Of a stretch of DNA of 64,000 bases, positions 1-43,117 are shown piece after piece. The stretch comes from a virus: the IMG/VR virus record IMGVR_UViG_3300028840_004314, positions 1 through 64,000 of that record; one strand, written 5' to 3'. Below the pieces are notes generated by a model. It had not been told where the DNA came from and ran no database searches. It worked only from the letters and a program-made list of their open reading frames with translations. Position 1 is the stretch's first letter; every line of letters begins with the position of its first letter. The translations under genes and the position numbers were made by a program.

Positions 1-159
1 GGTGTGGACGAATCGGATCTTCGCGATATGTTGGAGATTATGCCACTACAACAGGACGTTCATCCTTCGGAAGAAGGGGATACACCTTCAGAGGTTTTTG
101 TTAACTACATCAAGTTTGCCCTGGGTGAAGGATTCTTGGATGGGGGTGGGTTCGCCTAA
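1..159 (+). CDS. 3' end of an acidic hypothetical protein (5'-truncated by the window)
   Basis: Frame 1 is open from base 1 (GVDESDLRDMLE...GGGFA) to TAA 157-159, which overlaps the next ATG (TAATG). Confidence 0.7.
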   Translation, partial: GVDESDLRDMLEIMPLQQDVHPSEEGDTPSEVFVNYIKFALGEGFLDGGGFA

Positions 160-509
160 TGATCAAAGACTTGCTACAAATCTTGTTAGAAGGCCAAGGC
201 CTATCAGAAGCCCACCGGGATCTGTTCCAGCCAGACAAAAGGGAACAGGAGGTGTACTACCTGGGTGGATTGCACATCCCTTTGGAAATAGTAATCTACT
301 GGAACAGGCCTTTGGAGGGATTGGAGAAGGATATGTTGTATCCCTTCATCCTATCCTTGGCGAGAACAGAATCGGAAGGGATCCCAAAACTAGGGGCCCC
401 ACTAATAGAAGGGATTGTAGATGCGTCGATGAATGTGGAGAGTGTTAACCCTTCGGGCGGTATCGAAGCGGTTATGGAGATTCTTATCAAGAGTGCCACC
501 AAGGAGTAG
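159..509 (+). CDS. Hypothetical protein with leader and EAHRDLF tag (putative internal head protein)
   Basis: MIKDLLQILLEGQGLSE-AHRDLFQP; shares KDMLYPFIL / KDEILYPFVL with the next ORF. Confidence 0.75.
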   Translation: MIKDLLQILLEGQGLSEAHRDLFQPDKREQEVYYLGGLHIPLEIVIYWNRPLEGLEKDMLYPFILSLARTESEGIPKLGAPLIEGIVDASMNVESVNPSGGIEAVMEILIKSATKE

Positions 510-512
510 ATT

Positions 513-1187
513 GTGAGCCAGGAACTACTACAAAAACTATTGGAAGCACATCGAGACCTCTTCAAGCCTGGACAGGTACCGGAGGACATGCACTTCTTTG
601 TACTACCCGAGGCGGAGTTCGCCTTCACGGACGGGTTGTCTCTGGTGATTGATGAGAGGGAGGAAAACAGGCGATTCTCCAAGGATGAAATACTCTACCC
701 GTTTGTACTGTATGCCAATCCACATTTTACTGGGCAAGTCCTAGTAAGAGGTTATTTTGATGATGCTGGTTTTGTTCATACTATCACCAAAATGGAGGAT
801 AAGGAGTTACTTGTCCAAGGACTGTTTGAGCAGATGACCCCCGTCGAAAGGAACGCGACGGAGGTTCCGGAGGCGGTCCAGGAGGCCCACCGGGATCTTT
901 TCAAGCGTATGTCTAAGGAAGAGGCAGACCAAATCGAGGATACGACGGAGGTTTGGTTGCAGGATAATGAGTACATGGATATGTACAAGATGGTGGACGA
1001 TGGTGAAGGGCACGCCTCCTTGTATCTTGTGGAGCATCCGAGTATGGAGGAAGAACTGATAGCCAAGTTTGAGTATGGGGGAGCAGGTGTAACGGATGTA
1101 GTGGAGATGGATCAGGTGGCTGTACTGAATGCCATCTCTGGATTTTTCACAGGTGGGGCCACCAATTACAACGAGCCACCAGTGTAG
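513..1187 (+). CDS. Acidic hypothetical protein with two EAHRDLF tags
   Basis: GTG start after AAGGAG; LLE-AHRDLFKP at 543 and VQE-AHRDLFKR at 882. Confidence 0.8.
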   Translation: MSQELLQKLLEAHRDLFKPGQVPEDMHFFVLPEAEFAFTDGLSLVIDEREENRRFSKDEILYPFVLYANPHFTGQVLVRGYFDDAGFVHTITKMEDKELLVQGLFEQMTPVERNATEVPEAVQEAHRDLFKRMSKEEADQIEDTTEVWLQDNEYMDMYKMVDDGEGHASLYLVEHPSMEEELIAKFEYGGAGVTDVVEMDQVAVLNAISGFFTGGATNYNEPPV

Positions 1188-1215
1188 CTTTTACTTCTTT
1201 TTGAAAGGGTGTACG

Positions 1216-1704
1216 ATGAAGCGAATGTTTATGTGTGCAGTATTGATTGTGCTACTGACAGGAGGTTGTGGCGAACAGATCTCAGCCGTTAGGGAGGAGA
1301 TTAGGGATCCCAACAGTCCTACCCAAAAGGTCGTTGAGGACATCAACAAGATCGGGGAGACGATTGAGCCTATTGTGAAGATCGTCGAGAAGACTCCTTG
1401 GGGAGCCCCCGTGTCCCTGGTTTTTAATGGTGTGATGGGTGCCGTGGCCTTCTTGTATCAGCAGAGACGCAAAAAGGAACGCAAGGCATTACAGGGAACT
1501 GTGGCATCGTTACAGGTTCTTAAGTCCAGTTTGGCAGCCGCGAGTCCTACCAAGAATTTGATTAAGGAAGCGTGTAACGTCATTCAGGACGCGGAGATCC
1601 AGGCGGAGGTTGCGAAACTCCGGGCCGACCCCACCACTAAGATATTGGTGGACAATGCCCTGGCGGACATGGCGATTGCGACCAAAACGCCGACTACACA
1701 GTAG
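1216..1704 (+). CDS. Putative lipoprotein/membrane protein
   Basis: MKR plus hydrophobic stretch plus LTGG-C lipobox-like site; second hydrophobic segment followed by QRRKK. Confidence 0.7.
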   Translation: MKRMFMCAVLIVLLTGGCGEQISAVREEIRDPNSPTQKVVEDINKIGETIEPIVKIVEKTPWGAPVSLVFNGVMGAVAFLYQQRRKKERKALQGTVASLQVLKSSLAAASPTKNLIKEACNVIQDAEIQAEVAKLRADPTTKILVDNALADMAIATKTPTTQ

Positions 1705-1725
1705 AATACTTTTCTTTTCTTGGCA

Positions 1726-1762
1726 GGGTGGTCCGCAGGGTGTGGGCGGGCCACCCAGTTTT
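1726..1762 (+). terminator. Putative intrinsic terminator
   Basis: 11-bp stem GGGTGGTCCGC/GCGGGCCACCC with one G-U pair, then AGTTTT. Confidence 0.5.
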
Positions 1763-1786
1763 CCTTGGGTGATGGGAGTAACAACC

Positions 1787-2077
1787 ATGTTGAAGTTTTC
1801 ATTAGAAGGTAACTTGAATAATCCCGCCGATCAGGTGGCCCTTAAGATGGCTCTGCACGGTGAGGACTTTTGTAGTATTGTACATTCACTGTCTCTGGAG
1901 TTACACTCCTTGGCGAATCCCCCTGGAGGAGTGTTTCCCGCGGAGATGCCAAAGGATCCGGAGGAGGCTTACTTGTTCGCCCTCCGAAAGGTATCCGAGT
2001 CTCTTTTCGAGGACATTGAGATCCACGGAGTGAATCCGGATTGGTGTGAGATGTGTCCTGAGGATACAGATGCTTAA
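1787..2077 (+). CDS. Hypothetical protein
   Basis: ATG after GGGAG; overlaps the next start. Confidence 0.6.
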   Translation: MLKFSLEGNLNNPADQVALKMALHGEDFCSIVHSLSLELHSLANPPGGVFPAEMPKDPEEAYLFALRKVSESLFEDIEIHGVNPDWCEMCPEDTDA

Positions 2078-2711
2078 CGAAATCTATGACACTTTGACAG
2101 AAGCCCACAGGGATCTCTTCAAACCTTGGGATTTGGACGACTGGATCTCCGATCAGATGAAGGAGACAGGAGCCAAGTGGAGGCTGAACGTCCGTGGTAA
2201 CAAGTGGGTCGTAGAGGGTGATGTAGTAATACCCATCGCCACGGAAATGACACAATTACCAGTGTCCTTTGTGTCCGTGTCTGGGAACTTCATCGCAGAG
2301 GATGTATCCCTAACTACACTGAAGGGATGTCCATCCGTGGTAGGTGGTAGCTTCAATGTATCCCACAATCCACTACAAACCTTGGAGTTTGGTCCATACA
2401 TAGTACACGGGAATTACATGGCGATGGATTGTGACATTGTGGACCTGCGTTGTGGCGAGACTGTGTGTGTCGGCGATTTCTCCGTGATGTACAACAGGAT
2501 TACAACGCTGTATGGTATGCCCAAGTACGTTGGTGGGGATTTGATTGTAGCACACAACCGGTTGGAGAACCTAGGAAACACAGCTGCAGTTGTTGTAGAA
2601 GGTAAGATTTACTACTTTCCACAGAGTTCCAAAACAACGGCCTTGGGTTCGGATTGGTGGGAGTCTACTTTCGAGGGTGATAGGGAAAAAAGAATGTCAG
2701 AATGGGAGTAA
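2070..2711 (+). CDS. Phage LRR-like repeat protein with leader and EAHRDLF tag
   Basis: MLNEIYDTLTE-AHRDLFKP; ~22-aa repeats LxTLxGxPxxVGGxFxxxxN. Confidence 0.8.
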   Translation: MLNEIYDTLTEAHRDLFKPWDLDDWISDQMKETGAKWRLNVRGNKWVVEGDVVIPIATEMTQLPVSFVSVSGNFIAEDVSLTTLKGCPSVVGGSFNVSHNPLQTLEFGPYIVHGNYMAMDCDIVDLRCGETVCVGDFSVMYNRITTLYGMPKYVGGDLIVAHNRLENLGNTAAVVVEGKIYYFPQSSKTTALGSDWWESTFEGDREKRMSEWE

Positions 2712-2714
2712 ATC

Positions 2715-3128
2715 ATGACGGTCAGTAGGGAAAGTGTAATCAACTATGTGATGACGGGACAGAAGCCGGAAGAGTCTGGTGTCCCTGACAATAATCTGCA
2801 GGAACACAACATGCAGGATTCCTTGCCTAACATTCCTCCTTCAGATAGGGGACCAGGTGGGCCTAAATCGTCGAGCGATGCCTGGTCCCCAGTTTTTGAA
2901 ACCACATTGGAGGCCATCCTGGAGTATGTACAGACACACGGACGTCGATGTAACTACAAGATGATTGAACGGATGGCGTCCAAGGCTCTGGGGAAGAAGA
3001 GTGACATGGAGGAGAAAGTCCAGGAGGTTATGGAGCCGAAGACCACCCCTAGTGCAACGGAAACCAAACAAACCATGTCCGAGAATGTGGTGGATCACCT
3101 GGACACCCTGTTGAAGGCCTTGTCGTAA
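2715..3128 (+). CDS. Hypothetical protein
   Basis: ORF with GGAG RBS, coupled to the next gene. Confidence 0.65.
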   Translation: MTVSRESVINYVMTGQKPEESGVPDNNLQEHNMQDSLPNIPPSDRGPGGPKSSSDAWSPVFETTLEAILEYVQTHGRRCNYKMIERMASKALGKKSDMEEKVQEVMEPKTTPSATETKQTMSENVVDHLDTLLKALS

Positions 3129-3856
3129 TGAGCGATCTGTTGACCACATTATTGGAAGCCCATTCAGACCTTTTCCAGCCAATGCCGGAGAAGGAATGGA
3201 TCGAACTTCTTCTTGAACAGGATGGGTGGACTAGGAACAAGGATGGAACTATCTCTGTAGACGGAGATGTGAATTTATCCAGTTGGGATTTCATTAGAAT
3301 TCCTATGAAGTTCAAGGAGGTTACGGGTAGTTTCAATGTGGCGAGCAACAGTTTGGAAACCTTGGAGGGATGTCCAAAAGTGGTTGGTGGATCCTTCATA
3401 TGTTCGTACAATATGTTGGATGACTTGAAGGGAGGGCCACAGGCGGTTGGGCTTCACTACAAGTGTGACAACGCTATGTTGACTTCCTTGGATGGGTCTC
3501 CATCTCGTATAATTGGTGGCTTTGATTGTCGTTTCAACAATTTGGAAACCCTGGAAGGTGGTCCGGATTATGTGGAGGCGGATTTTCTTTGTGCCTCCAA
3601 TCAACTCACCAATTTGGAGGGAGGACCACTGGAGGTGGGTGGGTCTTTGGATGTGAATGATAACGAACTGACCAGTTTGGAAGGGGCCCCGAGACGTATT
3701 GGACGGTATGTGTATCTTCGAAATAACAAATTGACCTCCTTGGAAGGCCTACCAGCGGAGGTGTATCCGAGCCAGTTCAAGAGTTTGAACTACAATCCAG
3801 CGTCTCGGGAAGAGTTACTATCAACTATTGGATTTGACAATGAACACGCAGATTGA
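3128..3856 (+). CDS. Phage LRR-like repeat protein with leader and EAHSDLF tag
   Basis: MSDLLTTLLE-AHSDLFQPMPEKE; about seven LxSLEGxPxxVGGxFxCxxN repeats. Confidence 0.85.
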   Translation: MSDLLTTLLEAHSDLFQPMPEKEWIELLLEQDGWTRNKDGTISVDGDVNLSSWDFIRIPMKFKEVTGSFNVASNSLETLEGCPKVVGGSFICSYNMLDDLKGGPQAVGLHYKCDNAMLTSLDGSPSRIIGGFDCRFNNLETLEGGPDYVEADFLCASNQLTNLEGGPLEVGGSLDVNDNELTSLEGAPRRIGRYVYLRNNKLTSLEGLPAEVYPSQFKSLNYNPASREELLSTIGFDNEHAD

Positions 3857-4211
3857 ACTAGTACAAAGAGTGTGCGAAGCTGAAGGAAGATTTAACAACA
3901 CATCCTACGAGTCAACTGTACGGCAGGCGTCGGAGTGTTTGAACAAGAAGCAGTATGGACGTTGTGTAGAACTGTTAAGCACTCTACCTACCAACAAAGA
4001 ACTGTTACAACAACTGATAGAAAACCTCAAGGGCAAGTCAGTGTACAGTACACTAAAGAAGTTGGAAAAAGGTCGGATTGATAACAAATATCAGAAACTA
4101 AAAGCCTTGTCATCCCTGTTAACACATACTATAATAGAATGTGAGAAGGGTAATTTTCATTACCGTCCATTGATCATTTATCTGTATGAAAGAATAGGAG
4201 CCGCCATGTAA
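3840..4211 (+). CDS. Hypothetical helical protein
   Basis: Leader-like MNTQIELVQRVCE-A; coupled ORF. Confidence 0.65.
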   Translation: MNTQIELVQRVCEAEGRFNNTSYESTVRQASECLNKKQYGRCVELLSTLPTNKELLQQLIENLKGKSVYSTLKKLEKGRIDNKYQKLKALSSLLTHTIIECEKGNFHYRPLIIYLYERIGAAM

Positions 4212-4525
4212 TGAAAGATTTGTTGGATAATCTGTTGGAGGCCCACAGGGATGTATTCTCTCCTGAAAACCTTCCCCCCGAGGAACAGGACAAGTGGGAG
4301 AAGGATCAAGTCATGTCTAACTGGGAGCCGGAGGATATTGATACCTTGGCTCGTGGTGTTTTGAATCAGATGCGTAGGGCCATGGAAGCGGTGATGAAGG
4401 AAAAGTGGGACGAGGCCGTACGGTTGTATCCACAACAAGTACTGTCAGCTATCGCCCTTACCCTGGATGAACGTGGATGGGATATAGCTCCACCCGACAA
4501 CATAGAGGACTACCTGGACGTTTAG
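4211..4525 (+). CDS. Small acidic protein with leader and EAHRDVF tag
   Basis: MKDLLDNLLE-AHRDVFSP. Confidence 0.8.
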   Translation: MKDLLDNLLEAHRDVFSPENLPPEEQDKWEKDQVMSNWEPEDIDTLARGVLNQMRRAMEAVMKEKWDEAVRLYPQQVLSAIALTLDERGWDIAPPDNIEDYLDV

Positions 4526-4526
4526 T

Positions 4527-5873
4527 ATGCTAGATCTACCCTTTACAGACATATGGGAACAAGCCGCCCCCGCCGCCCCTACGAGGCCGACGGAGGTACC
4601 TGTCACTCCGCGGACGCCCAGGAAACGTCCTCCCAGTCCTATTAAGCCAGTACCTCGTAAACGTCCCAAGCCCAAAGGGGAGAACCGGGACGTAGAGCTG
4701 TTTAAGCGGAGTCGGGAAAACAAGGCCCCGGCGGTGGAGAACTCCTTACTCGGTCGCCTGCGTTCCATCATGGAGATGGCGTTTGATCCTGGAAGGTTTC
4801 CTGACTTTGTTGATCCTGGCAAGCGTGATTGGATCGAGACCGGGGACGAGGAGTTGGACAAGATCCTTCCCAACCTCACCAACACCGAGCAGACCTACTT
4901 GGAGATGGTTACCAGTGACAGTTATCAGAGGATAGTTTCCAGGTTGGAACAATACACTGGTCTGGAAGCGGACGAATTACAGTTACCCTCTGTGTTTAGT
5001 TTGTGTGCTCAAACCATGGAGAAGACTACGGAGTTGGAGAAGGCTCACCAAAGGGAGTTGGAAGACGTAGCCCTGGAGCTTGTACTAGGATTGGATGAAT
5101 ACAAAATCGTTCATGAAGCCTGGTTGAATGGTGAGGTGGAGTTTGACGTTCGCTTCAGTGAGTATGGTATGGAGTTGCCAGAGGGAGGTCCACAGGAACA
5201 GGACCAGGAACTCACCGACGAGGAAGAGATGAACGTGGATCTTACGGATGAGTTGGAAGATCTGGATGATGAGGGTCTGAAGAGAAGGGTGGCCAACATT
5301 CTTACTCAGGGCAGTGCCAGTAACAAGTTGTACTTGTTTAACATGGTGATGGACACTATCAAGAAGATGGATGAGGATCTTCCCCAGTTGTATGGTGTAA
5401 TCGCCGTGTGTGCCCAGCTAGGGTACTTCGTAGTGCCCTTCGGTTATGAGGAGATGGCCAAAGACAATACAATGATAGGGACGGAAGAAGTTACACCTAA
5501 GGATGACAATTATGTAATCAAGGCCCGTGGGGCCTTTTTCCCATTGTTGGTCAGTGAGTTGGTGAAAGGAATAGAGGAGTGGATCTCAATCCGTGAAACC
5601 ACTGGCCAACACGAAGAACAAGACACCCTGGAGAAGGAAACTCAGGATCTTATTGTAGGACCTGAGGTGTACAACAAGGTGGCTTCCATGGTTCCCACCG
5701 AGGACAGGGAACTACTTCCTTTGATTCGGAAGTATCTGTTGGATTTGGACGTGGAGGATATCCGAGACCTTTTGGGTGGTGACGAACAAATCATGAAGGA
5801 ACTTATTCAACGGGCCAGGGAGGCCTGGGACGCGTATGTCGATCAAAAAGAAGAATTGGAAGAACCTAACTAA
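4527..5873 (+). CDS. Large acidic hypothetical protein (putative internal head protein)
   Basis: 448 aa; Pro/Arg/Lys-rich N-terminal linker with IWE and IME candidate cleavage sites. Confidence 0.75.
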   Translation: MLDLPFTDIWEQAAPAAPTRPTEVPVTPRTPRKRPPSPIKPVPRKRPKPKGENRDVELFKRSRENKAPAVENSLLGRLRSIMEMAFDPGRFPDFVDPGKRDWIETGDEELDKILPNLTNTEQTYLEMVTSDSYQRIVSRLEQYTGLEADELQLPSVFSLCAQTMEKTTELEKAHQRELEDVALELVLGLDEYKIVHEAWLNGEVEFDVRFSEYGMELPEGGPQEQDQELTDEEEMNVDLTDELEDLDDEGLKRRVANILTQGSASNKLYLFNMVMDTIKKMDEDLPQLYGVIAVCAQLGYFVVPFGYEEMAKDNTMIGTEEVTPKDDNYVIKARGAFFPLLVSELVKGIEEWISIRETTGQHEEQDTLEKETQDLIVGPEVYNKVASMVPTEDRELLPLIRKYLLDLDVEDIRDLLGGDEQIMKELIQRAREAWDAYVDQKEELEEPN

Positions 5874-5888
5874 TTGGGAGCTTTAATC

Positions 5889-6518
5889 ATGTCGGATTTT
5901 AAAGATGCCGTTGAATTCATGACAGATGAAATTGAGAATCAGGCCAAACTCCTGGAGGACTCCAAGTTGAATGAGTCCGAGGACAAACCCAAGGACAAGG
6001 AAGTGGACGAGAAGAAGAAGGCTCCCAAGTGCAAGAAGTGTGGTGCCACCCACTGGCCGTTCCAGAAATGTGGGGCCAAGAAGAAGGGCAAGGACGACAA
6101 GAAGGAAGAGAAGCCCAAGAAGAAGTCCAAGAAGGACATGGAAGAGCGTCGGGCCGCCTGGAAGAAACGTCTGGCCGAGCGTCGTCGCAGGATCAAGGAG
6201 GAGGCCATGGACTCCGAGGACGACTATGTCGAGCCCACGGATGAAAAGAAGGAATGTGACGAGGAGAAACTTCCCTGTGGGTGTATGGGAAAGTGCACCT
6301 GCGAAGAGAAAAAGGAGTGTGACGAGAGCAAGGTCAACGAGGAAGCCGACTCCAAGGAGAAGCAACGCAACGAGAAGCTTCTGAAGGGCGAGATCGTTTA
6401 TGAGGAGTTCGTCAAGGGCTGCTTAGGTGGCCTGGCGGAAGTCTCCATCGTTGAAGGGGCCCTCGTACTGAAGAACGACCATGGAAAGGAAGTGAAGTTC
6501 GATCTTCCAAAGGAGTAG
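5889..6518 (+). CDS. Lys/Glu-rich low-complexity protein with Cys clusters (prohead-core-like)
   Basis: Highly charged; CKKC..H....C and CGCMGKCTC; LLE/LNE/IKE/VNE sites; C/G-ending codon bias like the capsid gene. Confidence 0.7.
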   Translation: MSDFKDAVEFMTDEIENQAKLLEDSKLNESEDKPKDKEVDEKKKAPKCKKCGATHWPFQKCGAKKKGKDDKKEEKPKKKSKKDMEERRAAWKKRLAERRRRIKEEAMDSEDDYVEPTDEKKECDEEKLPCGCMGKCTCEEKKECDESKVNEEADSKEKQRNEKLLKGEIVYEEFVKGCLGGLAEVSIVEGALVLKNDHGKEVKFDLPKE

Positions 6519-6575
6519 GAGACACACGTTCGGTAGTACAACCTTTTACAATCACCATGACAGGAGTGTAAAATC

Positions 6576-6950
6576 ATGGCTTTAGCAAATACAATGGTGA
6601 CATACCAGTCCGCCGGAAGTGATCCTGGTGTAATCAAGCAGGCCTACGTTCCGTTGGAATCTGGGGCTACCACCTACACAATTGTGGAGGCAGTGACAGG
6701 GGCCCAGATTCAGGTTCTGTCCATCGCCATTGATACTAACGTGGCCTCCAAGGCGGAGTTTAAATCCCAGGCGGACGTCATCGCTTCGTTCACCATGCAA
6801 CAGAACACCAATGTGTGGAAACACTCCGACAACTCGGAGCGTCCTTTGTTCTGTACGAACACGGGAAACGCCTTACTGCTCACCATGTCAGGGGCCGTCA
6901 ACGCGGGAGGCGTGTATGTACAATGGAGGGAACGTACGCCCACCTCGTAG
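6576..6950 (+). CDS. Small beta-rich virion-type protein
   Basis: AGGAG RBS; beta-strand-rich 124 aa. Confidence 0.7.
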   Translation: MALANTMVTYQSAGSDPGVIKQAYVPLESGATTYTIVEAVTGAQIQVLSIAIDTNVASKAEFKSQADVIASFTMQQNTNVWKHSDNSERPLFCTNTGNALLLTMSGAVNAGGVYVQWRERTPTS

Positions 6951-6999
6951 TTGATCTTTTAGTCATTCTATTACCGTGGGTCATTTTTTGGAGCGCATC

Positions 7000-9147
7000 A
7001 TGCGGAAAGACATTGTAGATATCCTAGTCGATGGTGGAGTTAAGTTGGTTCATGAATCCGCCCATCACATTACAAAGGTTCACCGTACAAAGGTGAACGA
7101 ACAGGGTGTGGATGAAGAGCCATTGAAGCTCCCCGCCTCCGAGGACGTTCCCATGGGAGACGATATCCCTACTGATGAGGAGGTACCTCCAACGGGTGGT
7201 ATACCTGAGGAGGAGAAAGAGCAGGAGCCAGTTAGCAAACGATACCTCGGAAAGGCCGGGGACAACTACCTGTACTTCGTTACGAAACAGAACGACGGGG
7301 ATCAGGTGGAAGATATGCAGATACTGAATCAGGATGAGGAAGTAGTGTACAGTGCGGCCGACGCCGACGAGGATTTCTCCAACTTTGACGAGTTTCTCTT
7401 GCATGCCATTCACAACACCGAGATGGACGACGTCGCCAAGGACGTGTACGACGAGTTCATCTATCCGAAGTTGGTTGAACCCGAGATGCCCGAGGACGCT
7501 CTGGCTATGGGCGATGAAGAGGAGGGGCCGATGGATGATGCGGGTCCTGGTCCCTCCAGGTCCAGGAAACCTTCCAGGTTGGGTCCGATCGGTAAAAAGG
7601 GCCCCTTAAGCGGACCTAAGGGTGGACCAGAGGGTGGACCGGAGGAGGGCCCCTCCTTAGGTGGGCCTAAATCCCCGACACCACCCATGAAGGATGAAGA
7701 GGGTCCCGAGGGTGGGCCGAGAAGTCCGGAGAAGCCACCTGTGCCCGAGCCTGAAATGGACGAGCCTCCAATTGGTGAGCCCGAGCCCGAGGAGAAACCT
7801 CGTCGTCGGCCTCGTAGACGTCCTCCGACTTCACCAAAGTCCTTTGGACCGGACCTTCGTCCCAGGGAGTCCAGGAGACGTGGTCGAAGAGTGAAGGAGG
7901 CCCATCGTGATTCATTTGAACCAGACGAGATCGAACTTCCTCAGGCGCTTCACCAGGCCATTATGAGCCTTCGGAACGATCCGGAGTTACAGGCTGTCGG
8001 TATTGGTGATACAGCCACGGATGAGGGTATTTCCATGTCAGTGGAGTACCTTCTTCAAAATGGATTACAGTCCATGGATTCTTTGTTGGACAACACAGGA
8101 GGAGATCCCTATAATCTTCTTCCCACGGAGGACGAGGCTGATAACATGGAACCCGAAAGTTGGGATCCCATGCAGTTTGCCTCTGTGCAGAAGGGCGTGA
8201 AGAAGATCACTCAAACAGTGTACAAAGCCTTGGAGGACTCTTGGGACGAGTTGCAGCAATATGATCCTCAGACGGTGGGTGTAGAGGTGTACGACATACT
8301 CCATACGTCTGATGATTCGGAGTACGACGACGAGGAGGATGGGGATTGGACCCAGGAGAATGAACGCCGGAAAAAGATGAACGAGATCTTTTATGGTAAG
8401 CAGGACGAAGGTCCAACCCTTTCGGATATGCCCAAACCCTTGGTGGATGCCCTGAAAAAGATCAAGTCGGATCCGGAGCTTCAGACGTTGGGTGTAGGTG
8501 ATACTGCCACGGACGAAGGTATTTTCCATGCCATCGCCTACATTTTTGAAGAGGGGTTGGACGGTTTCAATACATTACTCCAAACGGAGTCCGGTGAGTT
8601 GATGGATCCGTATAACCTTCTTCCGACTGAGCAGGAGGCCAAGGATGCCGAGCTGTCCGATTACGATCCTACAAGGTATCCTTCTGTACAGAAAGGAATG
8701 AAGAAGATAACACAGATGTTGCAGGCAGGTTTGGAGAAGAGCTGGAGTGGGTTGGAGACCTCCGGGTTGGATGGTAATGAAATACTCCACGTTCTGTACA
8801 GTTGGTTTCACTTTGGAAGTGAAGAGGACGACGAGGAGGAGGCCGCTCCGGAGTTTGAAAGTAGGAAACGTCCTACTAAGGAGAGTCGTGTAAACGAGGA
8901 GCGTTACACATATTCCGGACCCACTGGTGACAACCACTACTTCCTGGACTTCAACGACGCCGAAGAGGAAATGATGGTGACGGATGACAAGGGCAACTCC
9001 TTGATCTCGGGCACTTATGGAACGAAGGGAGAGACGTATACGATCCAGAGTCCCCACGCTGTGGCCAAGTTGGTGTTGGATTTGTTCCAAGAGGAGGACG
9101 AGAAGGTATCAGCCGGATGGAGACTTATGAAGAGGCGGGTATGTTGA
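7000..9147 (+). CDS. Multi-domain acidic protein (putative polyprotein) with an internal ~164-aa duplication and an EAHRDSF tag
   Basis: Two copies of DPELQxxGxGDTATDEGI...DPYNLLPTE...SVQKGxKKITQ; basic linkers ending VKE, MNE, VNE. Confidence 0.8.
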   Translation: MRKDIVDILVDGGVKLVHESAHHITKVHRTKVNEQGVDEEPLKLPASEDVPMGDDIPTDEEVPPTGGIPEEEKEQEPVSKRYLGKAGDNYLYFVTKQNDGDQVEDMQILNQDEEVVYSAADADEDFSNFDEFLLHAIHNTEMDDVAKDVYDEFIYPKLVEPEMPEDALAMGDEEEGPMDDAGPGPSRSRKPSRLGPIGKKGPLSGPKGGPEGGPEEGPSLGGPKSPTPPMKDEEGPEGGPRSPEKPPVPEPEMDEPPIGEPEPEEKPRRRPRRRPPTSPKSFGPDLRPRESRRRGRRVKEAHRDSFEPDEIELPQALHQAIMSLRNDPELQAVGIGDTATDEGISMSVEYLLQNGLQSMDSLLDNTGGDPYNLLPTEDEADNMEPESWDPMQFASVQKGVKKITQTVYKALEDSWDELQQYDPQTVGVEVYDILHTSDDSEYDDEEDGDWTQENERRKKMNEIFYGKQDEGPTLSDMPKPLVDALKKIKSDPELQTLGVGDTATDEGIFHAIAYIFEEGLDGFNTLLQTESGELMDPYNLLPTEQEAKDAELSDYDPTRYPSVQKGMKKITQMLQAGLEKSWSGLETSGLDGNEILHVLYSWFHFGSEEDDEEEAAPEFESRKRPTKESRVNEERYTYSGPTGDNHYFLDFNDAEEEMMVTDDKGNSLISGTYGTKGETYTIQSPHAVAKLVLDLFQEEDEKVSAGWRLMKRRVC

Positions 9148-10082
9148 CCAACGACAAAGGGTTGGTGATTCATCTGGACAACGGACAGTCGTTCACCGTT
9201 ACTGTAAAGAGGTACAAAGGAGATGGTAGTGTAAGTGAAAAGGACATTGTTGAAATACTGCCGTACCTAAACGCCGAACTGGAGGATAACTGGAGTAAGC
9301 TGGGAGACGACGACAATGAAGACATGGAGGAAGGGAAGAAGTTCGACAAGTGTGTAAAGGACGGTGGTCGTGTACGTCGAGTGTCCGGGGAGAAGAAACA
9401 TGGCCTGGACAAGGATGAGTATGTGAACTACTGTTACAGTGGTGGAGATTCCTTCCGAGGTGAAGTGAAGAAGAAAAAGACAAAGGAGGCCTGTGGTAAA
9501 ATCCATCGCGACAAGAGCAAAAAGAAGGTGAACGAGACCTGGGACGAAGGTCCCTTCCGTCGGATGTGGGACGAGCAACAGGATCCCAAGGCCATTCTGA
9601 TCGCCAATCTCATCGCCGAGGTGTGGAATGGTGGCTTTGAACAGTGGGTCGCCAATACCTCCACGGGGGATCAAACAGACACCCGGGATGCCCTGGAACC
9701 CATTCAAGGGGAGAATGTAAAGAAGCTGGCCAAGATGGTGGATGAAATCATTTCCATGCAAGTTCCTGCCTCTACTCCTTGGATAGAGGAGGAGTCGTGG
9801 TATCAGGACAATGAGGAGAGGTTGGACGCCATGGATCGGGAGTTTTACGACGTGGATGAAGTAGTGGTCAATGAGTTGGACGCCCACTATGGTGGAGACC
9901 TTTCCGGAACCGCGAAGTACAATTTCGAGGGTATCCAGGTGGAAGGTGAAGACGGGAATTACAGGATTCGAACCAAGGAAGGGGTGACACATTGTAGTGA
10001 AGCTGCTATACTGGCGTGGTCAGGAGCCGACTCCATAACGGAGGAAGTACTGAAAGTGTTTGTAACTGAAGCCATCAATTAA
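9117..10082 (+). CDS. Multi-domain protein with a DMP19/DUF4375-like domain; possibly the frameshifted continuation of 7000..9147
   Basis: LIAEVWNGGFEQW motif; 31-nt overlap with the upstream ORF in the -1 frame. Confidence 0.7.
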   Translation: METYEEAGMLTNDKGLVIHLDNGQSFTVTVKRYKGDGSVSEKDIVEILPYLNAELEDNWSKLGDDDNEDMEEGKKFDKCVKDGGRVRRVSGEKKHGLDKDEYVNYCYSGGDSFRGEVKKKKTKEACGKIHRDKSKKKVNETWDEGPFRRMWDEQQDPKAILIANLIAEVWNGGFEQWVANTSTGDQTDTRDALEPIQGENVKKLAKMVDEIISMQVPASTPWIEEESWYQDNEERLDAMDREFYDVDEVVVNELDAHYGGDLSGTAKYNFEGIQVEGEDGNYRIRTKEGVTHCSEAAILAWSGADSITEEVLKVFVTEAIN

Positions 10083-10849: not shown

Positions 10850-12715
10850 ATGAAAGAGCAGTTATTTGAAACCAGTTTCGTGAAGGCCGACATACTTGAA
10901 TCTGATTCGGCGAAGCTTCCCAAGGGTGTCCTGTGTCAGGGTGTGTGGCCGATTTGCAACATCGGTAAATTGAACCACAACAATCGGATGTACGAGAAGG
11001 ACGTTTACGAGAGGGTGATCGCAAACGCCCTGATTACCGAGAAGATGAAGAACAGGACCCTGTACGGTGAACCCGAGCATCCTCAGGAGACCCAGTCGTC
11101 CTTGGATCGTACTTCTCACATCGTCACCGACATGTGGATCGATGAGAAAACCGACCGCGTGATGAACAGGATTGAAGTCCTGAACACCCCTGGTGGTCAG
11201 CTCATCAATACACTCCTGGAGGCAGGGTGCCTTGTGGGTGTATCCACACGGGCCGAGGGAGAACTGGAGGAGGTTCGCGAAGGTCAGAAAGAACCTTACA
11301 TGAGAGTCGTTCCGGAGTCGTACAATTATGTAACCACGGACTTCACGGCCGATCCCAGCACACTTGGGGCCATTCCTGTCCAAGTGGAGAAGAACGTCGT
11401 GAACCAGGTACAGGAGGCCTTGAAGGAAGGTAAAGTGGACAAACGCTTTGCCTGTTCCTTGCTGGAGTCCTGTAAGAGCAAGGAGGCGAAGACTCTTCTG
11501 GAAACCGTCCAGGAAAAGGAGGAGCCCACGGAGAAGGAGCCTACCAACGAGAAAGATGAATCCCCCTGGCGTAAGCTGAAGGTGGGAGACAAAGTGAAGT
11601 ACGAAGGAAAGGAGTACTCCGTCAAAGGTATTTCATTGGAGGAAAGCACCGTGGATATTTCAACCGATGATGGAACGGTGGTATCCGTCAATGATCCCGA
11701 CTCACTTGTCGTGATCACACCTCCTGATGGATCTGCTGTACCAGTTACTGATGAACCTCCATCATCACCCCCAGTGGACCTGGAGGACGTCGTTCCTCCA
11801 GGTCCCGATATTGACGTGGCCATGGAACCTCCTGGAGTACCCGAGGAGGACCTTGAGGCCGAATTGGAACCCGAAGGCCCCTCCGGACCAGAAGCCCTAG
11901 GCCTGGACCTGGAAGAGCCGGAGGAGGTTCCTGAGCTCGAAGAGGAGCCAGAGGAGGAGGAAGAGGACGAAGAGGAGATGAACGACAGTAAGAAAGCCTC
12001 CTCTGGTGATGACAAATTGGACGAGACGGACGATCAGAAGGCCAAGGAGTCCAAGACTCCCGCGTCGGACCTAACCAAGGAGATATTGTCCAACAAGATC
12101 GACAAGGCCCTGGCTGAAGCCCAACGAGACAAGGCTGTTGAAGTGGCCAGTGAGATTGAGGAACAACGTGTGAAGGAAATCGCCATCCTCACCAAGAAGC
12201 TGAACGCCCTCCGCGAAGAGTTGAAACCGGAGGACAGGAGTGTACTGGACCAGGCCCTGGCGGAGAACGAGGCCCTTCAGAAGAAGATCCAGGAAATGAA
12301 GAAACAGGCGAAGCTTCTTATGGAGAAGATCAGTAAGATCAAGGAGTCCTTCGCCGCTCAGTTGTCGACCGTTAAGGAAGGCGTCGTGAAGATGGAGGAG
12401 GACTTCAAGAAGAAGTTGGAAGAGGAGAAGAAGAGGTTGGCAGAGGAAGCCCACCAGGTATTTATGGAGAGATACGCCAAGTATAAAATCGAAACGTCAG
12501 GTCTGCCCGTGACGGAGAAGGTTCGAACACTTATCGAATCCTGCGACACGCCAGAGGAGGCGGATGAGTTGGTGGAACATGTACGCGATACGCTTCGCGA
12601 GAGTGCACTTCACTCCGAAAAGTTGGAGAGCGTGGATGTGGACGCCATGAAGGAAAACTCCGGCCAAGTTTACATTGATAAGGTGGTCGGGGATTTCATG
12701 GACGCGATGATATAG
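10850..12715 (+). CDS. T4 gp21-like prohead protease fused to an acidic, coiled-coil scaffold
   Basis: NHNNRMY, YGEPEHP, GVSTRAEG and DFTADPS motifs; C-terminal E/K coiled coil; directly upstream of the capsid gene. Confidence 0.9.
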   Translation: MKEQLFETSFVKADILESDSAKLPKGVLCQGVWPICNIGKLNHNNRMYEKDVYERVIANALITEKMKNRTLYGEPEHPQETQSSLDRTSHIVTDMWIDEKTDRVMNRIEVLNTPGGQLINTLLEAGCLVGVSTRAEGELEEVREGQKEPYMRVVPESYNYVTTDFTADPSTLGAIPVQVEKNVVNQVQEALKEGKVDKRFACSLLESCKSKEAKTLLETVQEKEEPTEKEPTNEKDESPWRKLKVGDKVKYEGKEYSVKGISLEESTVDISTDDGTVVSVNDPDSLVVITPPDGSAVPVTDEPPSSPPVDLEDVVPPGPDIDVAMEPPGVPEEDLEAELEPEGPSGPEALGLDLEEPEEVPELEEEPEEEEEDEEEMNDSKKASSGDDKLDETDDQKAKESKTPASDLTKEILSNKIDKALAEAQRDKAVEVASEIEEQRVKEIAILTKKLNALREELKPEDRSVLDQALAENEALQKKIQEMKKQAKLLMEKISKIKESFAAQLSTVKEGVVKMEEDFKKKLEEEKKRLAEEAHQVFMERYAKYKIETSGLPVTEKVRTLIESCDTPEEADELVEHVRDTLRESALHSEKLESVDVDAMKENSGQVYIDKVVGDFMDAMI

Positions 12716-12766: not shown

Positions 12767-14305
12767 ATGAAGAAATCGACCATTCAAAATCTGGCTGAGG
12801 CCAGGTATCAGCAGATCCTGCAGCAGCAGGAGCAGCTCATCGAGGGGTGGAAGCCCATCCTCAACGCGTGCAACAAGTGGAATGAGGAACACCGCGGAGA
12901 GCCCCTGGATAAGCACCAGATGAGAAACATCGCACAGTGCCTGGAGAACGCCTACATCGAGGGCTCCTTCCGCCAGCACAGCAAGATGTTTGAGGCCACC
13001 ACCGAGGACAACATCAGCTTCCTGGGCGTTCAGCTGCCCGTGATTGCTGCCATCGTTCCCTCGCTGGTGCTGAATGACGTCGCCGTTGTGCAGGCCTTGG
13101 ACCGTCGAACCGGTTCCGTGTTCTATCTGGACGTTAAGGCCGGCTCCACCAAGGGTGGTGTCACGAGCGGAGACGTTCTGATGGATGCCAAGACTGGCCA
13201 TGCCAGGACCAAGACCAACCGCCTGTACGCCGCGGCCATCGTCGAGAACGAGACCCTGGTGGACGAGGGTGGTGGAGGTGCCGCCACGTACACTGGTACG
13301 GTGGATTTCGCCCCCGGGTTGATCAACCTGGAGTACGTGACCATCAAGGATTCCAGTGGAACCGTGCTGGGCCGTTCCAACAGCTCAGGTACGATCACCG
13401 ATGCCACCTCCGGCAGTACGGGTGTTACCGGTACCATCACCGCGGCAGGTGTGTACAGCATCGACTTCAGTGCCACGTCTCTCGGCTCTGGAAATGGTGC
13501 CACGATCACCTACCACTACCAGTACGACCTGCCCACCGATGCCTATGGCAACAATGATGGTGTCCCCCAGATGGACATCAACATCAGCTCGAGTGCCATC
13601 GAGTCCATCGACTTCCCCGTGAGGTCGCGGTACAGCATCGGTGCCATGTTCGACCTGAAGAAGGCACATGGCATGGACCTCGAGTCCGAGGTTGTGAAGT
13701 ACCTGGGTGGCGAAGTCCGCTGGACCGTGGATCATTATGGCATCGACCTGATCGAGACCGCGGCCACTGGTGGGTATGATCCCATCGCGGGGGCCAATTT
13801 CAGCCCCGCGACCGCGATCACGGCCTGGAACGCCAACGTCGGCTCCGGTGAGCCCTGGATCTGGAAAAAGGAGGAGTTCATAGATCGTATCTATGAAGGC
13901 TCCAACAACATCCAGTCCAAGACGCTGCGCGCGATCGGTAATTTCATTATCGCCGATCTGAACGTGTGTCGTGTGATCAGCCAGCACAGCAAGTTCAAGG
14001 GCAATGCCAATATCACTGGCAAGAAGGCCCCGACTGGCCCGGTGAACATCGGTACGCTGGACAACCGATTCACCGTCGTTCAGGATCCCTTCCTGACCAC
14101 CAATCGTTACCTGGTGGGCTACAAGGGCGATCACTTCTTGAACGCGGGCATGATTTACGCCCCGTACATCCCGCTGTTCGCCAGCCCCACGCTGACGACC
14201 GCGGACCTGATCGCCCAGAAGGGCTTCATGAGCTCGGCTGGGTTCAAGATCACGAACGCCGGTATGTTCACCTACGGCTCCATCAGCGGTACCTACTTTA
14301 GCTAG
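12767..14305 (+). CDS. Major capsid protein (T4 gp23-like)
   Basis: VQALDRRTGSVFYL, DLKKAHGMDLESE, AGMIYAPYIPL; strong codon bias; candidate maturation site MFE-ATT. Confidence 0.95.
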   Translation: MKKSTIQNLAEARYQQILQQQEQLIEGWKPILNACNKWNEEHRGEPLDKHQMRNIAQCLENAYIEGSFRQHSKMFEATTEDNISFLGVQLPVIAAIVPSLVLNDVAVVQALDRRTGSVFYLDVKAGSTKGGVTSGDVLMDAKTGHARTKTNRLYAAAIVENETLVDEGGGGAATYTGTVDFAPGLINLEYVTIKDSSGTVLGRSNSSGTITDATSGSTGVTGTITAAGVYSIDFSATSLGSGNGATITYHYQYDLPTDAYGNNDGVPQMDINISSSAIESIDFPVRSRYSIGAMFDLKKAHGMDLESEVVKYLGGEVRWTVDHYGIDLIETAATGGYDPIAGANFSPATAITAWNANVGSGEPWIWKKEEFIDRIYEGSNNIQSKTLRAIGNFIIADLNVCRVISQHSKFKGNANITGKKAPTGPVNIGTLDNRFTVVQDPFLTTNRYLVGYKGDHFLNAGMIYAPYIPLFASPTLTTADLIAQKGFMSSAGFKITNAGMFTYGSISGTYFS

Positions 14306-24969: not shown

Positions 24970-25245
24970 ATGCCAAAGAGGAAGCCGGTTAGAACACATA
25001 CGTTCCGTTACGGTGTTTACAGAATCGAAGAGGCCTTGGGGGCCGATGGTGTTTGTGATGTACCAGACAACAGATTACGAAAAACACTGGATATGATGAT
25101 CTACCAGGGAAATAGTCTAAGGGCGTTGAGAACGGCGATACATGAATCCATGCACGCCGAAGGTGTACCTGACAGATTCGTCCATGGGCTGACTCCTGAT
25201 AGGATCGCCAGTTTTCTATGGAGACTTGGTTGGCGACGAAGATGA
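24970..25245 (+). CDS. Small HExxH metallopeptidase-like protein
   Basis: TAIHESMHA. Confidence 0.55.
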   Translation: MPKRKPVRTHTFRYGVYRIEEALGADGVCDVPDNRLRKTLDMMIYQGNSLRALRTAIHESMHAEGVPDRFVHGLTPDRIASFLWRLGWRRR

Positions 25246-25877
25246 TTAAACACATCGAACAATTAATGGAAGCCCATAGGGACATCTTCAAGCCAATGCC
25301 AGAGGATGAACAGAGAAACATCTGGACTGACTTCCTGGCACAAATGGTGATATTGGAGGGATGGAAACTCACAGATCATGGAATAGAAGTTCCAGGTACT
25401 GTGAATTTCGGGGAGGATTTTACAGATGTGGAGGAACTACCCTTTAAATTCTGGACTGTAGGAGGCGATTTTCTCATATACAATGGAGTGTTGGCCACCT
25501 TGGCAGGTTGTCCAGTTCAAGTAAAGAAAACTTTCGACTGTGAAGGTAACATGCTGACTTCGTTGAAGGGTGGACCGAAATTTGTAGGGGCTCATTACGA
25601 ATGTGGTTGGAATGTATTGAATTCCTTGGAAGGGGCCCCGGAGTTTATACCTGGAAACTTCTCTTGTAGCAATAATAACTTGGTTGATTTACGAGGTGGT
25701 CCAAGGGTGGTGATGGGTGACTATCGTTGTGAAAACTGTAACATAAGATCCTTCAAAGGGGCCCCAGAATATGTGGGCGGGAATTTCTACTATGCTAAGA
25801 ATTCTGTGGATCTGGAGGATTACAAAGAACTACAGAAATGGTGGCTTCAACTTCGCCGAGAAGGTTTGAAGATATGA
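25242..25877 (+). CDS. Phage LRR-like repeat protein with leader and EAHRDIF tag
   Basis: MIKHIEQLME-AHRDIFKPMPEDE; LxSLxGxPxxVGxxFxCxxN repeats. Confidence 0.85.
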   Translation: MIKHIEQLMEAHRDIFKPMPEDEQRNIWTDFLAQMVILEGWKLTDHGIEVPGTVNFGEDFTDVEELPFKFWTVGGDFLIYNGVLATLAGCPVQVKKTFDCEGNMLTSLKGGPKFVGAHYECGWNVLNSLEGAPEFIPGNFSCSNNNLVDLRGGPRVVMGDYRCENCNIRSFKGAPEYVGGNFYYAKNSVDLEDYKELQKWWLQLRREGLKI

Positions 25878-28684: not shown

Positions 28685-29809
28685 ATGATTAACGAACTCT
28701 ATGACATCCTGGAGAGTATGGAGCCTTGTTGGGAGAAGGCCCCCACCATACCGGAACAACCTGTTGTCCAGAATCCTGGTGTTAACGATAAGGAGCCGGA
28801 ACTGGACAAGGAGGATGACACTGTGGTGGATCCTGAAAAGGTACATCCTGATAAGGAACCCAGTGGGATGGAACCTGTTTCTGGTAAGGAGACTGAACAG
28901 GATGTGAAGGAGTCTGAGAAGCCGGAGTACGATTTGGAGGGGGCCAAGGAAGCCATTGATTACGCCCAGTCTCTTATCGCCTCCGCGGAGAGTCCGGACC
29001 GGGACGCCGTGATACGCTCCGTCCAAGAAGAGTACGACCTCAGCCCACAGGAGGCCTCCATCGTTGTTGACCAAGCCAGGAAGGGTATGCTGGAGAAAGG
29101 AACCTTAAAGCTACCCGATAGTTTGGATCCGCTTCGTCTCTGTGACGACTGTTGCTGCACCTTCCGATCCAAGACAAGGGAGTGTACAGAGTGCCAGTCC
29201 AAGAATACCTTTTCTCTGTTGGAAAACGAGGAGGACATCCAGGCCGACCTGGACGACATCACCGACGAGGTAGCCATGCAGGTCCTGGATACAGGTGGAA
29301 CTATTCATCCTGGCAAACTGAAGAATCTGAGACTCCAGGTCGAAGAGTTTTTGAAGGGTATCGGTTACGACATTGACAAGCACAACCCAGAGGACGTGAT
29401 TCAGGCCATCGTCAATACCCTTCACACCTACGAAAGTAAGGTGACTGAGAAGTCGGAGGACGTTGAAGACGCCCTTACTGACATTGTGATCGATGTTGGT
29501 ATGGAGATTGGAGGCGATCCGGAGGACCTGAAAGCCAAAGTCAAGTCCTTCTTGGATCACATGGACTTTTCCTACGACAAGGACGACGTGGGAGAAGTGA
29601 CTCAGGCCATTATCTCCACCCTGAAGACCTATCAGGAGTCCAGGGCCAAGAAGTTAAAGGAGCAAGACATGACCCCGCATCTTCGGGTAGTGGCCAGAGG
29701 ACTCGAGGATCGGCGGGACGCCGAACAGATCGCCCAGTCCAAAAATGGACGGGTCGCCACGGATGATAGGGACGAAGAGAAATTCATGGTTGTTGTGGAT
29801 GCTTCCTAA
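28685..29809 (+). CDS. Multi-domain acidic protein with a Zn ribbon and a duplicated helical domain
   Basis: Leader MINELYDILE-S; CDDC...CTEC; two copies of ED....L.DI...V.M...FL....D..DK.....V.QAI..TL.TY. Confidence 0.75.
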   Translation: MINELYDILESMEPCWEKAPTIPEQPVVQNPGVNDKEPELDKEDDTVVDPEKVHPDKEPSGMEPVSGKETEQDVKESEKPEYDLEGAKEAIDYAQSLIASAESPDRDAVIRSVQEEYDLSPQEASIVVDQARKGMLEKGTLKLPDSLDPLRLCDDCCCTFRSKTRECTECQSKNTFSLLENEEDIQADLDDITDEVAMQVLDTGGTIHPGKLKNLRLQVEEFLKGIGYDIDKHNPEDVIQAIVNTLHTYESKVTEKSEDVEDALTDIVIDVGMEIGGDPEDLKAKVKSFLDHMDFSYDKDDVGEVTQAIISTLKTYQESRAKKLKEQDMTPHLRVVARGLEDRRDAEQIAQSKNGRVATDDRDEEKFMVVVDAS

Positions 29810-30768
29810 TGATTTTTGAAGACCTACTCCAAAGTGTAGAAGAGGCGGGGTACATACTCCGTAAGGTGAAGGCCCCTTCTCGTCGGTGGATTTGGGAGTC
29901 CGTGGTGGACTACCCCAAGCCAGCCCTTCCCACTATTTGGAGGAAGGAAGGGGAAAAGTGGATTCTACGTGAAGAGGTTAGGGCCCAGATCAATGAGATC
30001 CTGGACACCTATCCGAAGTTTGATCTACTTCAAATAGGGGATCAGATCCACATCACTGGATCCATCGGTACTAACCAGTACACTCCGGATGCTGACATCG
30101 ATGTACATATTGTAGTCGATCCAGGAATGTTCGGGGACCCAGAAGGGATACAACGAGAGGTGTTCAAGTTCTTCATAGATGCGGACAACCGAATCGAAGG
30201 ACACCCCGTGGAAGTGTATCTCCAGTACAACCCTGCTCAAGAAATGTTGTCGGATGCTGTATACGACTACAGGTCCGAGGAATGGGTGGTAGGACCTAAA
30301 CTCGTAGACCCCTCTTATGACCCCCAGGAGGACTTTTCGGGCGTCCTGGCTGATGTCAGGGCCCAGGCCAGCCGGGCGGACCTAGGGATCGGTGAGCTAC
30401 GTAGGGACATCGTGGATTATGAGACAATCCAGCAGGCCATTGAGGGCCTACCAAGTAGGGAACAGAAGATACTCCTCACGAAGTTACAGGGGAAGTTGGT
30501 GGAGATACAACAGGATATTGATACCCTGTTGGACTTAAAGAAGGGTTGGGGTTTGATGCGACGGAAGTCCTCCATTCCAAAGGATGAAACGGAGGCCCTT
30601 CAAAGTGTAGACCTGGCCAAGAGTTGGAGAGACGCGAATTTTACGTTCAAGATGTTGAACAGATACAAGTACATGCGGGTGATCGCTCTGTTGGATGGAA
30701 TTGTAACGGGTAAAACGCTGGACGATGAAACCTTGGACACCATTAAGTCGGTTACAGGAATAGTGTAA
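29809..30768 (+). CDS. Nucleotidyltransferase (Pol-beta superfamily)
   Basis: ITGSIG......ADIDVHIVVD (GS plus DxD), then PVEVY; helical C-terminus. Confidence 0.8.
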   Translation: MIFEDLLQSVEEAGYILRKVKAPSRRWIWESVVDYPKPALPTIWRKEGEKWILREEVRAQINEILDTYPKFDLLQIGDQIHITGSIGTNQYTPDADIDVHIVVDPGMFGDPEGIQREVFKFFIDADNRIEGHPVEVYLQYNPAQEMLSDAVYDYRSEEWVVGPKLVDPSYDPQEDFSGVLADVRAQASRADLGIGELRRDIVDYETIQQAIEGLPSREQKILLTKLQGKLVEIQQDIDTLLDLKKGWGLMRRKSSIPKDETEALQSVDLAKSWRDANFTFKMLNRYKYMRVIALLDGIVTGKTLDDETLDTIKSVTGIV

Positions 30769-43111: not shown

Positions 43112-43117
43112 TCAATT

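Follow-up and report, generated by a model that had tools for sequence, protein, structure and literature searches.

The head protease gp21 of phage T4, a member of family S77, cuts after Glu in the pattern I/L-x-E, and the capsid targeting sequence (CTS) of this phage is 10 amino acids (aa) long. The T4 internal proteins (IPs) are described as a diverse set with only the CTS in common (PMC3012670), and Alt is described as being cut at ITE-6 and LTE-619, several cuts per substrate being usual (PMC5694885). The latter source gives the proteases of T4, phiKZ, 201phi2-1, and SPN3US as all cutting C-terminal to Glu. Polyvalent proteins, which carry many unrelated domains in one polypeptide encoded near virion genes, would according to one proposal be packaged, delivered together with the DNA, and released by embedded peptidases; its authors liken them to viral polyproteins (PMC5512222). 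DMP19 is described as a DNA mimic that keeps DNA from NHTF and HU (PMC3384305, PMC5722371). In the accessible portions of the literature on such processing, we found no report of a cassette polyprotein cut by a head protease. Here we describe two overlapping open reading frames (ORFs), A and B, at positions 7000 to 10082 of an uncultured phage. They lie in the first 64 kb (the window) of an 84,485-nt virus contig of IMG/VR, record IMGVR_UViG_3300028840_004314, estimated to be 54% complete, and the long ORFs of the window are all on the + strand.

We read this stretch, with a probability of roughly 0.6, as encoding a protease-processed modular head-core and cargo polyprotein of a phage with a T4-type head, in which conserved modules serve assembly and variable modules are cargo. 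The initial annotation had proposed a single polyprotein gene whose domains are released by the prohead protease like a cassette array. The module anatomy and junctions that fit the rule of the neighboring protease support the array; the single ORF does not hold for the window, where two ORFs lie in different frames. This contig has two abutting genes, and the contigs of two public sequencing runs suggest a single gene in the natural population. The parts are as follows.

7000..9147, + strand: ORF A, 715 aa from ATG 7000, with GTG 6976 as an alternative start; modular and acidic, with four junction sites
7000..7101, + strand: N-terminal leader, 34 aa, helical, ending R-T-K-V-N-E (site 1, VNE 7093-7101)
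7237..7485, + strand: core of module A1, four predicted strands and two helices with disordered acidic spacers on either side; kept in relatives
7486..7899, + strand: low-complexity spacer rich in Pro, Gly, and Glu, with the basic run RRRGRRVKE at its end (site 2, VKE 7891-7899)
7900..8385, + strand: module A2, copy 1 of a duplicated helical acidic domain, starting with the tag AHRDSFEP (7900-7923) and ending KKMNE (site 3, 8377-8385)
8386..8898, + strand: module A3, copy 2 of the duplicated domain, ending ESRVNE (site 4, VNE 8890-8898)
8899..9147, + strand: module A4, 82 aa, the last part of ORF A
9117..10082, + strand: ORF B, 321 aa, in the -1 frame relative to ORF A
9330..9485, + strand: mini-module CVxxGGxVRRVSG…YVNYC…GEVKKKK, in ORF B
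9486..9536, + strand: basic linker ending KSKKKVNE (site 5, VNE 9528-9536)
9537..10079, + strand: module B2, 181 aa, pI 4.13, DMP19-like, with a Pfam match at 9594-9863

The five x-[NK]-E sites that had been proposed as domain boundaries (RTKVNE, GRRVKE/AHRDSF, RKKMNE, ESRVNE, and KKKVNE) were all present at these coordinates, and each of them reads [KR]-[VM]-[NK]-E, with Glu at P1 and a hydrophobic residue at P3. The domains had been called acidic and their linkers basic, and both descriptions were largely borne out: segments between sites had pI values of 4.05 to 4.72, with the exception of segment B1 (pI 6.0), and the last 12 residues of four of the five linkers had a net charge of +2 to +5, the KKMNE linker having only +1. 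The spacer at 7486..7899 was predicted to be without structure, in a low-confidence model. A database copy of the ORF A protein is likewise 715 aa long.

The gene for the prohead protease begins approximately 0.8 kb downstream of ORF B. It and the other head features used below are these.

10850..12715, + strand: prohead protease-scaffold gene, S77, with a T4 gp21-like N-terminal part of ~190 aa fused to a long acidic coiled-coil scaffold
12764/12767-14305, + strand: capsid gene, gp23-type (Gp23 Pfam 1.2e-40)
12983..12994, + strand: predicted maturation cut K-M-F-E in the capsid gene, directly before invariant ATTEDNI
5874..6518, + strand: head-core ORF with sites LNE 5967-5975, IKE 6192-6200, and VNE 6333-6341
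6030-6071, + strand: Zn-knuckle CKKCGxxHWPFxxC, in ORF 5874-6518

The protease domain matched Pfam Peptidase_S77 (2.7e-14), phrog_207 (9.2e-36), and the T4 gp21 chain of PDB 5jbl (E 4.9e-6). Relatives were collected by capsid-seeded scans (L010, L011, and L012, with capsid proteins 47 to 54% identical) and by a metagenome scan seeded with A1 (L013 to L017, of which L016 repeats L011). The protease blocks GExEHP and VGVSTRAEG were kept in four of four relatives, and a hydrophobic-x-E stands at the end of the protease domain: LKE here (11420-11428), LRE in L010, and MFE in L011, the last read by eye. The best match of the capsid protein among cultured phages was just 27% identical. In each of the four related capsid genes, [KR]-[MIL]-[FL]-E directly precedes the invariant ATTEDNI, and the capsid alignment has few invariant columns before this site and many after it; from this pattern we predict it to be the place of the capsid maturation cut. 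In T4, by the PDB chain lengths (521 and 456), the capsid chain loses 65 residues between precursor and mature form.

The junction sites were then counted as the narrow motif [KR][VILM][NK]E, which was defined after these sequences had been seen. ORFs A and B together hold five copies versus 0.31 expected, and none of 20,000 composition-preserving shuffles reached five. ORF 5874-6518 holds three versus 0.33 expected, which brings the stretch of ORFs from 5874 to 10082 to eight versus 0.65. Elsewhere on the contig, outside these ORFs, there were seven versus 4.2 expected, with two versus 0.40 in the protease-scaffold gene and five in the ~22,900 aa of the other 103 ORFs. In relative L010, the motif occurs twice in the syntenic 694-aa ORF (0.45 expected) and four times in the protease-scaffold (0.56 expected).

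Gain or loss of domains exactly at the linkers had been named as a check, and the relatives were found to gain, lose, and reshuffle modules at hydrophobic-x-Glu junctions. In L010 and L011, a single ORF directly upstream of the protease-scaffold replaces ORFs 5874, A, and B. Module A1 was recovered there (tblastn E 1e-10 to L010; a profile of five relatives matched the window at E 2.5e-21), and the same ORF carries the Zn-knuckle of ORF 5874 (E 1e-9), at its N terminus in L010 and at its C terminus in L011. The leader ends KEKVNE, KERVDE, KEEIDE, KEKVEE, or REVKE in the relatives versus RTKVNE here, its hydrophobic-x-Glu ending (V-[NKDE]-E or I-D-E) thus being kept. The A1 homology block starts three residues past KVNE in the window; in L010, where 425 aa of other modules precede A1, it starts nine residues past RKLRE. 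No similarity to A2, A3, A4, the mini-module, or B2 was found in the relatives that share the capsid and protease. When the four close variants L011, L014, L015, and L017 were compared, six indel regions of at least 6 aa were seen, of which four were of the module type, with a hydrophobic-x-E on both sides; the remaining two were length changes of a low-complexity spacer and a 6-aa loop. The four insertions are listed below.

Insertion 1: 44 aa in L015, between AKEEIDE and a second AKEEIDE (EIDE…EIDE)
Insertion 2: ~77 aa, between KVEE and QVSE
Insertion 3: a 6-aa remnant, RVDE…QVSE
Insertion 4: a CPECG…CHDCG zinc-ribbon, between KLQE and SLIE

Within the window, the proposed tandem duplication was confirmed: 7900-8385 and 8386-8898 were 45% identical over 132 aa (E 3e-37). 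No relatives of A2 were found beyond this twin in the same gene, ESM Atlas gave no usable match for A2, and a HMMER search of 7900-9144 against 1.84 billion representatives recovered only the protein itself. Pfam and PHROGs gave no match for A1, A2, A3, or A4, and a tblastn search with ORF A found nothing in 50,697 phage records. A looser recurrence that had been suggested between RYLGKAGDNYLYF and YSGPTGDNHYFL was not significant (BLASTP E 0.13). A4 is possibly a degenerate partial copy of A1, judging from a resemblance that is not significant, and A4 and B1 matched at E 0.028 over just 11 aa. Homology of the module that follows A1 in the relatives (…TVVDDKGNSF…) to A4 and B1 was also considered and rejected, a profile of this module from five relatives having found neither even at E 10.

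Whether A and B are one gene or two was addressed with the strain variation in public runs X1 and X2, which come from different studies. Contigs of both runs match 8700-9098 exactly and continue with 49 letters foreign to the window, and in a second contig of run X2, 21 foreign letters precede 9099-9359; neither run has a contig that bridges 9098/9099 as the window does. The loose ends overlap by 11 letters, giving an apparent insert of 40 letters (49 = 40 + 9 and 30 = 21 + 9, as expected if unitigs overlap by 30), the 20-letter core of which has no match in the window with up to three mismatches. Read by hand, the insert contains no stop and shifts the frame such that ORF B continues ORF A, and its end, …E-S-K-L, followed by the R-E of the window, makes an extra junction, the same KLRE as in L010. 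A single ORF of ~1,040 codons is therefore the probable form of the natural gene, and the window is either a deletion variant or an assembly fault at 9098/9099. The proposal of a single polyprotein thus fails for the window as given and apparently holds, by a hand-made join, for the contigs of the two runs. In the contig as it stands, ORF A stops at TGA 9145-9147 and the likelier start of ORF B is ATG 9141, with AAGAGG placed 5 nt before it and ATGTTGA forming the overlap with the stop of ORF A, so that ORF B looks translationally coupled to ORF A. A programmed -1 frameshift at the overlap was dropped because no slippery run was seen in 9100-9147 and the 40-letter indel better explains the change of frame. 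Strain variation in the two runs was concentrated at the joints (8700-9600) and included two minor variants, one a co-occurring variant with 72 other letters, in frame, instead of 9499-9537 (the KKKVNE linker), and one with 208 other letters in place of the sequence before 9322.

One internal domain had been reported to begin with a tag found at the N termini of stand-alone genes. This is real for A2 (tag at 7897), and the tag is more widespread than reported. E-A-H-R-D-x-F occurs in 10 copies on the 84,485-nt contig, all on the + strand, of which 8 are at the N termini of stand-alone ORFs and 2 are internal. The stand-alone genes are as follows.

159..4525, + strand: cluster of five tagged genes (159, 513, 2070, 3128, and 4211), with N termini M..LL..L-x-E/AHRDLFKP
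25218-25877, 40804-41451, and 42411-42713, + strand: further genes with the same N-terminal tag

The eight N-terminal copies (ORFs 159, 513, 2070, 3128, 4211, 25218, 40804, and 42411) lie 13 to 50 codons after a stop and consist of an amphipathic M..LL..L-x-E and then AHRD-x-F-x-P, the leader before E/AHRD being ~10 aa long and up to ~17 to 18 aa in two of them. The internal copies are RRVKE/AHRDSFEP at the start of A2 and AVQE/AHRDLFKR in ORF 513-1187 (~876-911, the tag at ~882, residue ~123), which, judged by its sequence, may be another protein of the ORF A type, with two modules. Paralogy beyond the tag was found for four of the eight stand-alone proteins (2070, 3128, 25218, and 40804), which are LRR-like and 30 to 40% identical. 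The presumed cut, after hydrophobic-x-E, would fall inside the tag and leave the conserved stretch behind it. A tagged LRR-like orthologue has L-L-E/A here and V-N-E/D at the same place in L010 (start MLSIVNE/DSDLDSLFKP). A degenerate DNA scan for the tag pattern in viral contigs gave three stretches, approximately the chance level, two of which were the same sequence in an unrelated high-GC contig, and these candidates were rejected.

These features can be compared with those of the T4 internal proteins IPI to IPIII and Alt. The protease is of the same family, and a short N-terminal leader ending in hydrophobic-x-Glu is present here as well; as with the T4 CTS, a short leader ending in a predicted cut site is common to otherwise unrelated proteins, the cargo genes being diverse, fast changing, and alike only in their tag. 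Unlike in T4, one polypeptide holds several modules and has junction sites within it, a conserved AHRDLFKP follows the presumed cut, and the modules are acidic, not basic. ORFs A and B have no sequence similarity to the T4 IPs or Alt. It is possible, and we offer it tentatively, that [KR]-hydrophobic-x-Glu is a junction code, serving both as protease cut sites and as recombination joints at which cargo is inserted, duplicated, or swapped, and that the genes tagged with E/AHRDLFKP are its single-module form.

The one module of a named family is B2, which matched DMP19 (PF14300) at E 2.1e-10 and 41.6 bits versus a cutoff of 25, over profile positions 11 to 100 of 112; its nearest ESM Atlas clusters were also DMP19 (score 0.90). 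B2 has a net charge of -25. Word-seeded searches gave no homologues of B2, and no PDB sequence matched it, solved DMP19 chains included. B2 thus shares with the Neisseria DMP19 a family match and strong acidity, and DNA mimicry is suggested for it by family only; DMP19 is a free bacterial protein, whereas B2 is the end domain of a phage head-module protein, placed after a basic linker. The setting among virion genes is also that of the polyvalent proteins, which as described in PMC5512222 have effector domains of known enzymatic types and, in many cases, an embedded peptidase. In ORFs A and B, no peptidase family was detected at E values up to 5 and no known effector enzyme was found. Unlike in polyvalent proteins, release here would be carried out in trans by the head protease.

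The polyprotein would coassemble with the protease-scaffold inside the prohead, where the gp21-type serine protease would cut after the Glu of each linker and free the modules. The conserved modules most likely serve core assembly, and as parts of the assembly core they may be degraded and not delivered; the variable modules, such as A2/A3 and the DNA-mimic-like end module, would most likely remain as cargo and pass into the host together with the DNA. A first alternative is that all of the modules are scaffold or core, like T4 gp22, gp67, and gp68, and are chopped at many sites into acidic pieces that leave the head upon DNA entry, with nothing delivered to the host. The position of ORFs A and B, with head genes upstream of them and the protease-scaffold downstream, mirrors that of the core genes in T4. 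The modules are strongly acidic, and A1 and the leader are kept across relatives, as expected of an assembly part. The T4 core proteins are described as cut to short fragments that exit the capsid (PMC5694885), and both they and the propeptides of the giant phages phiKZ, 201phi2-1, and SPN3US are described as receiving multiple cuts after Glu, from genes beside the protease, as is predicted here. Those cuts, as described, degrade a scaffold or strip a propeptide and leave one mature product, unlike the arrangement here, in which folded-looking modules, one of a known family, stand between the sites and are gained and lost at the junctions. In addition, the protease already has its own long coiled-coil scaffold, A2/A3 and B2 are lineage specific, being absent from relatives that have this capsid and protease, as would not be expected of an essential core, the family of B2 is one of DNA mimics, and A2 starts with the tag of eight stand-alone accessory genes. 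We consider a role as scaffold alone unlikely.

A second alternative is that the linkers are never cut and are flexible hinges and recombination joints in a whole multidomain structural or ejection protein, the x-[NK]-E endings persisting because modules are exchanged by recombination within the linker-coding DNA. The insertions do carry duplicated junction peptides (AKEEIDE twice in L015), such as recombination at repeated linkers leaves, and packaging without a cut is described for the virion RNA polymerase of the N4 type and for other polyvalent proteins (PMC5512222). A looser protease-type motif (K/R at P4 or P5, V/I/L/M at P3, and Glu at P1) was enriched neither in ORF A (6 versus 3.55, P = 0.14) nor in ORF B (3 versus 1.9, P = 0.29), which also fits linkers that stay intact. 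The same looser motif was enriched in ORF 5874 (7 versus 2.5, P = 0.014) and in the protease-scaffold (14 versus 5.8, P = 0.004), which it studs. The junction Glu and hydrophobic P3 are exactly those of the predicted capsid maturation site in four of four relatives, and the site is kept in place in orthologues though the residues around it differ. Both the uncut protein and the persistence of its endings through recombination accordingly seem improbable to us.

The 52-aa mini-module at 9330-9485, a Cys/Gly/Lys piece that is unannotated, recurs in six other proteins (listed as P0003 to P0008 and P0010). In three of the four carriers read, it stands at the extreme N terminus, and the same three match head-maturation-protease PHROGs, one of them also Pfam Mu-like_Pro; in P0006 it is near the C terminus, with no family match. 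The protease carriers belong to unrelated phages. The mini-module may be a head-core docking or DNA-binding piece. That ORFs A and B are cytoplasmic anti-defense or regulatory multidomain proteins that merely lie beside head genes, as the absence of a match of ORF A to any head-protein family and the description of DMP19 as a cytoplasmic bacterial protein might suggest, is very improbable given the synteny directly upstream of the protease in relatives, the sharing of the mini-module with head maturation proteases, and the sharing of the junction motif with the protease-scaffold and the capsid precursor.

Independent domains with disordered linkers had been proposed as a structural check. An AF2 model of A1 from a six-row alignment had a core with pLDDT 62 to 80 and spacers below 50, which agrees with a folded core between disordered spacers; A1 is the one module modeled with an alignment. 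No PDB fold matched the A1 model in Foldseek at E ≤ 0.001.

Several points weigh against reading the stretch as a processed polyprotein. The T4 internal proteins are basic, and the acidity of the modules here fits expelled scaffold. The cuts described for SPN3US, bar a self-cleavage product of the protease, only remove N-terminal propeptides (PMC10052503). The T4 catalytic Ser aligns with the Thr of an S-T pair in the protease here, which weakens the assignment of the nucleophile. To the flat result of the looser motif in ORFs A and B must be added the definition of the narrow motif after the fact. The single-sequence AlphaFold model of ORF A had a mean pLDDT of 39.6, is unreliable, and was used only for a rough outline of secondary structure, in which three of the four sites fell in unstructured stretches and one, KKMNE, with its barely basic linker, in a helix. 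The duplicated domain has no relatives, and the recurrence of A1 in A4 is not significant, the profile of five relatives' A1 modules reaching the start of A4 only at an i-E of 5.3. The 40-letter join was made by hand from overlapping ends, with letters 31 to 49 of the loose end not displayed, and one of the two runs may be the source of the window itself, so that this evidence is not fully independent.

The remaining observations concern the surroundings of the locus and its relatives. ORF 5874-6518 is Lys/Glu rich and has a second Cys cluster, and its knuckle is the sole part common to relatives. The protease-scaffold fusions of the clade are 621 to 1,021 aa long (window 10850-12715, L010 7162-9987, L011 3544-6609, and L012 1111-3840), and have many hydrophobic-x-E sites. 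Their middle inserts differ across the clade, those of L011 and L012 including Cys-rich motifs; these proteins may also carry swappable modules. In L012, a group I intron at 5194-5458 (Rfam RF00028, 69.6 bits, E 2.1e-17) splits the capsid gene, the exon resuming at …IYCPYIPLF. No homologue of the L010 portal was found on the contig. The regions 29809-30768, 32861-34510, and 41716-44830 hold genes for a tail sheath, a baseplate spike (Phage_base_V), and Baseplate_J, and the phage is therefore contractile tailed; a protein with a nucleotidyltransferase domain (NTP_transf_2, 4.7e-6) is among the genes of the same regions. Among the protease-seeded loci L001 to L005, L002, L004, and L005 were ordinary T4-like marine phages without a counterpart of ORF A.

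If the junctions are cut, the cargo that is coinjected with the DNA could be listed from sequence alone, including orphan domains that no database names, and the acquisition of cargo by insertion at a junction would become visible. If the junction code is true, the injected effectors here would comprise the acidic orphan domain present in two copies and a DMP19-like DNA mimic directed against DNA-binding defense or nucleoid proteins of the host. Were the processed polyprotein confirmed, a domain of a DNA-mimic family would sit inside a virion, and the T4 model of capsid targeting and gp21 cleavage would extend from single tagged proteins to cassette-like polyproteins.

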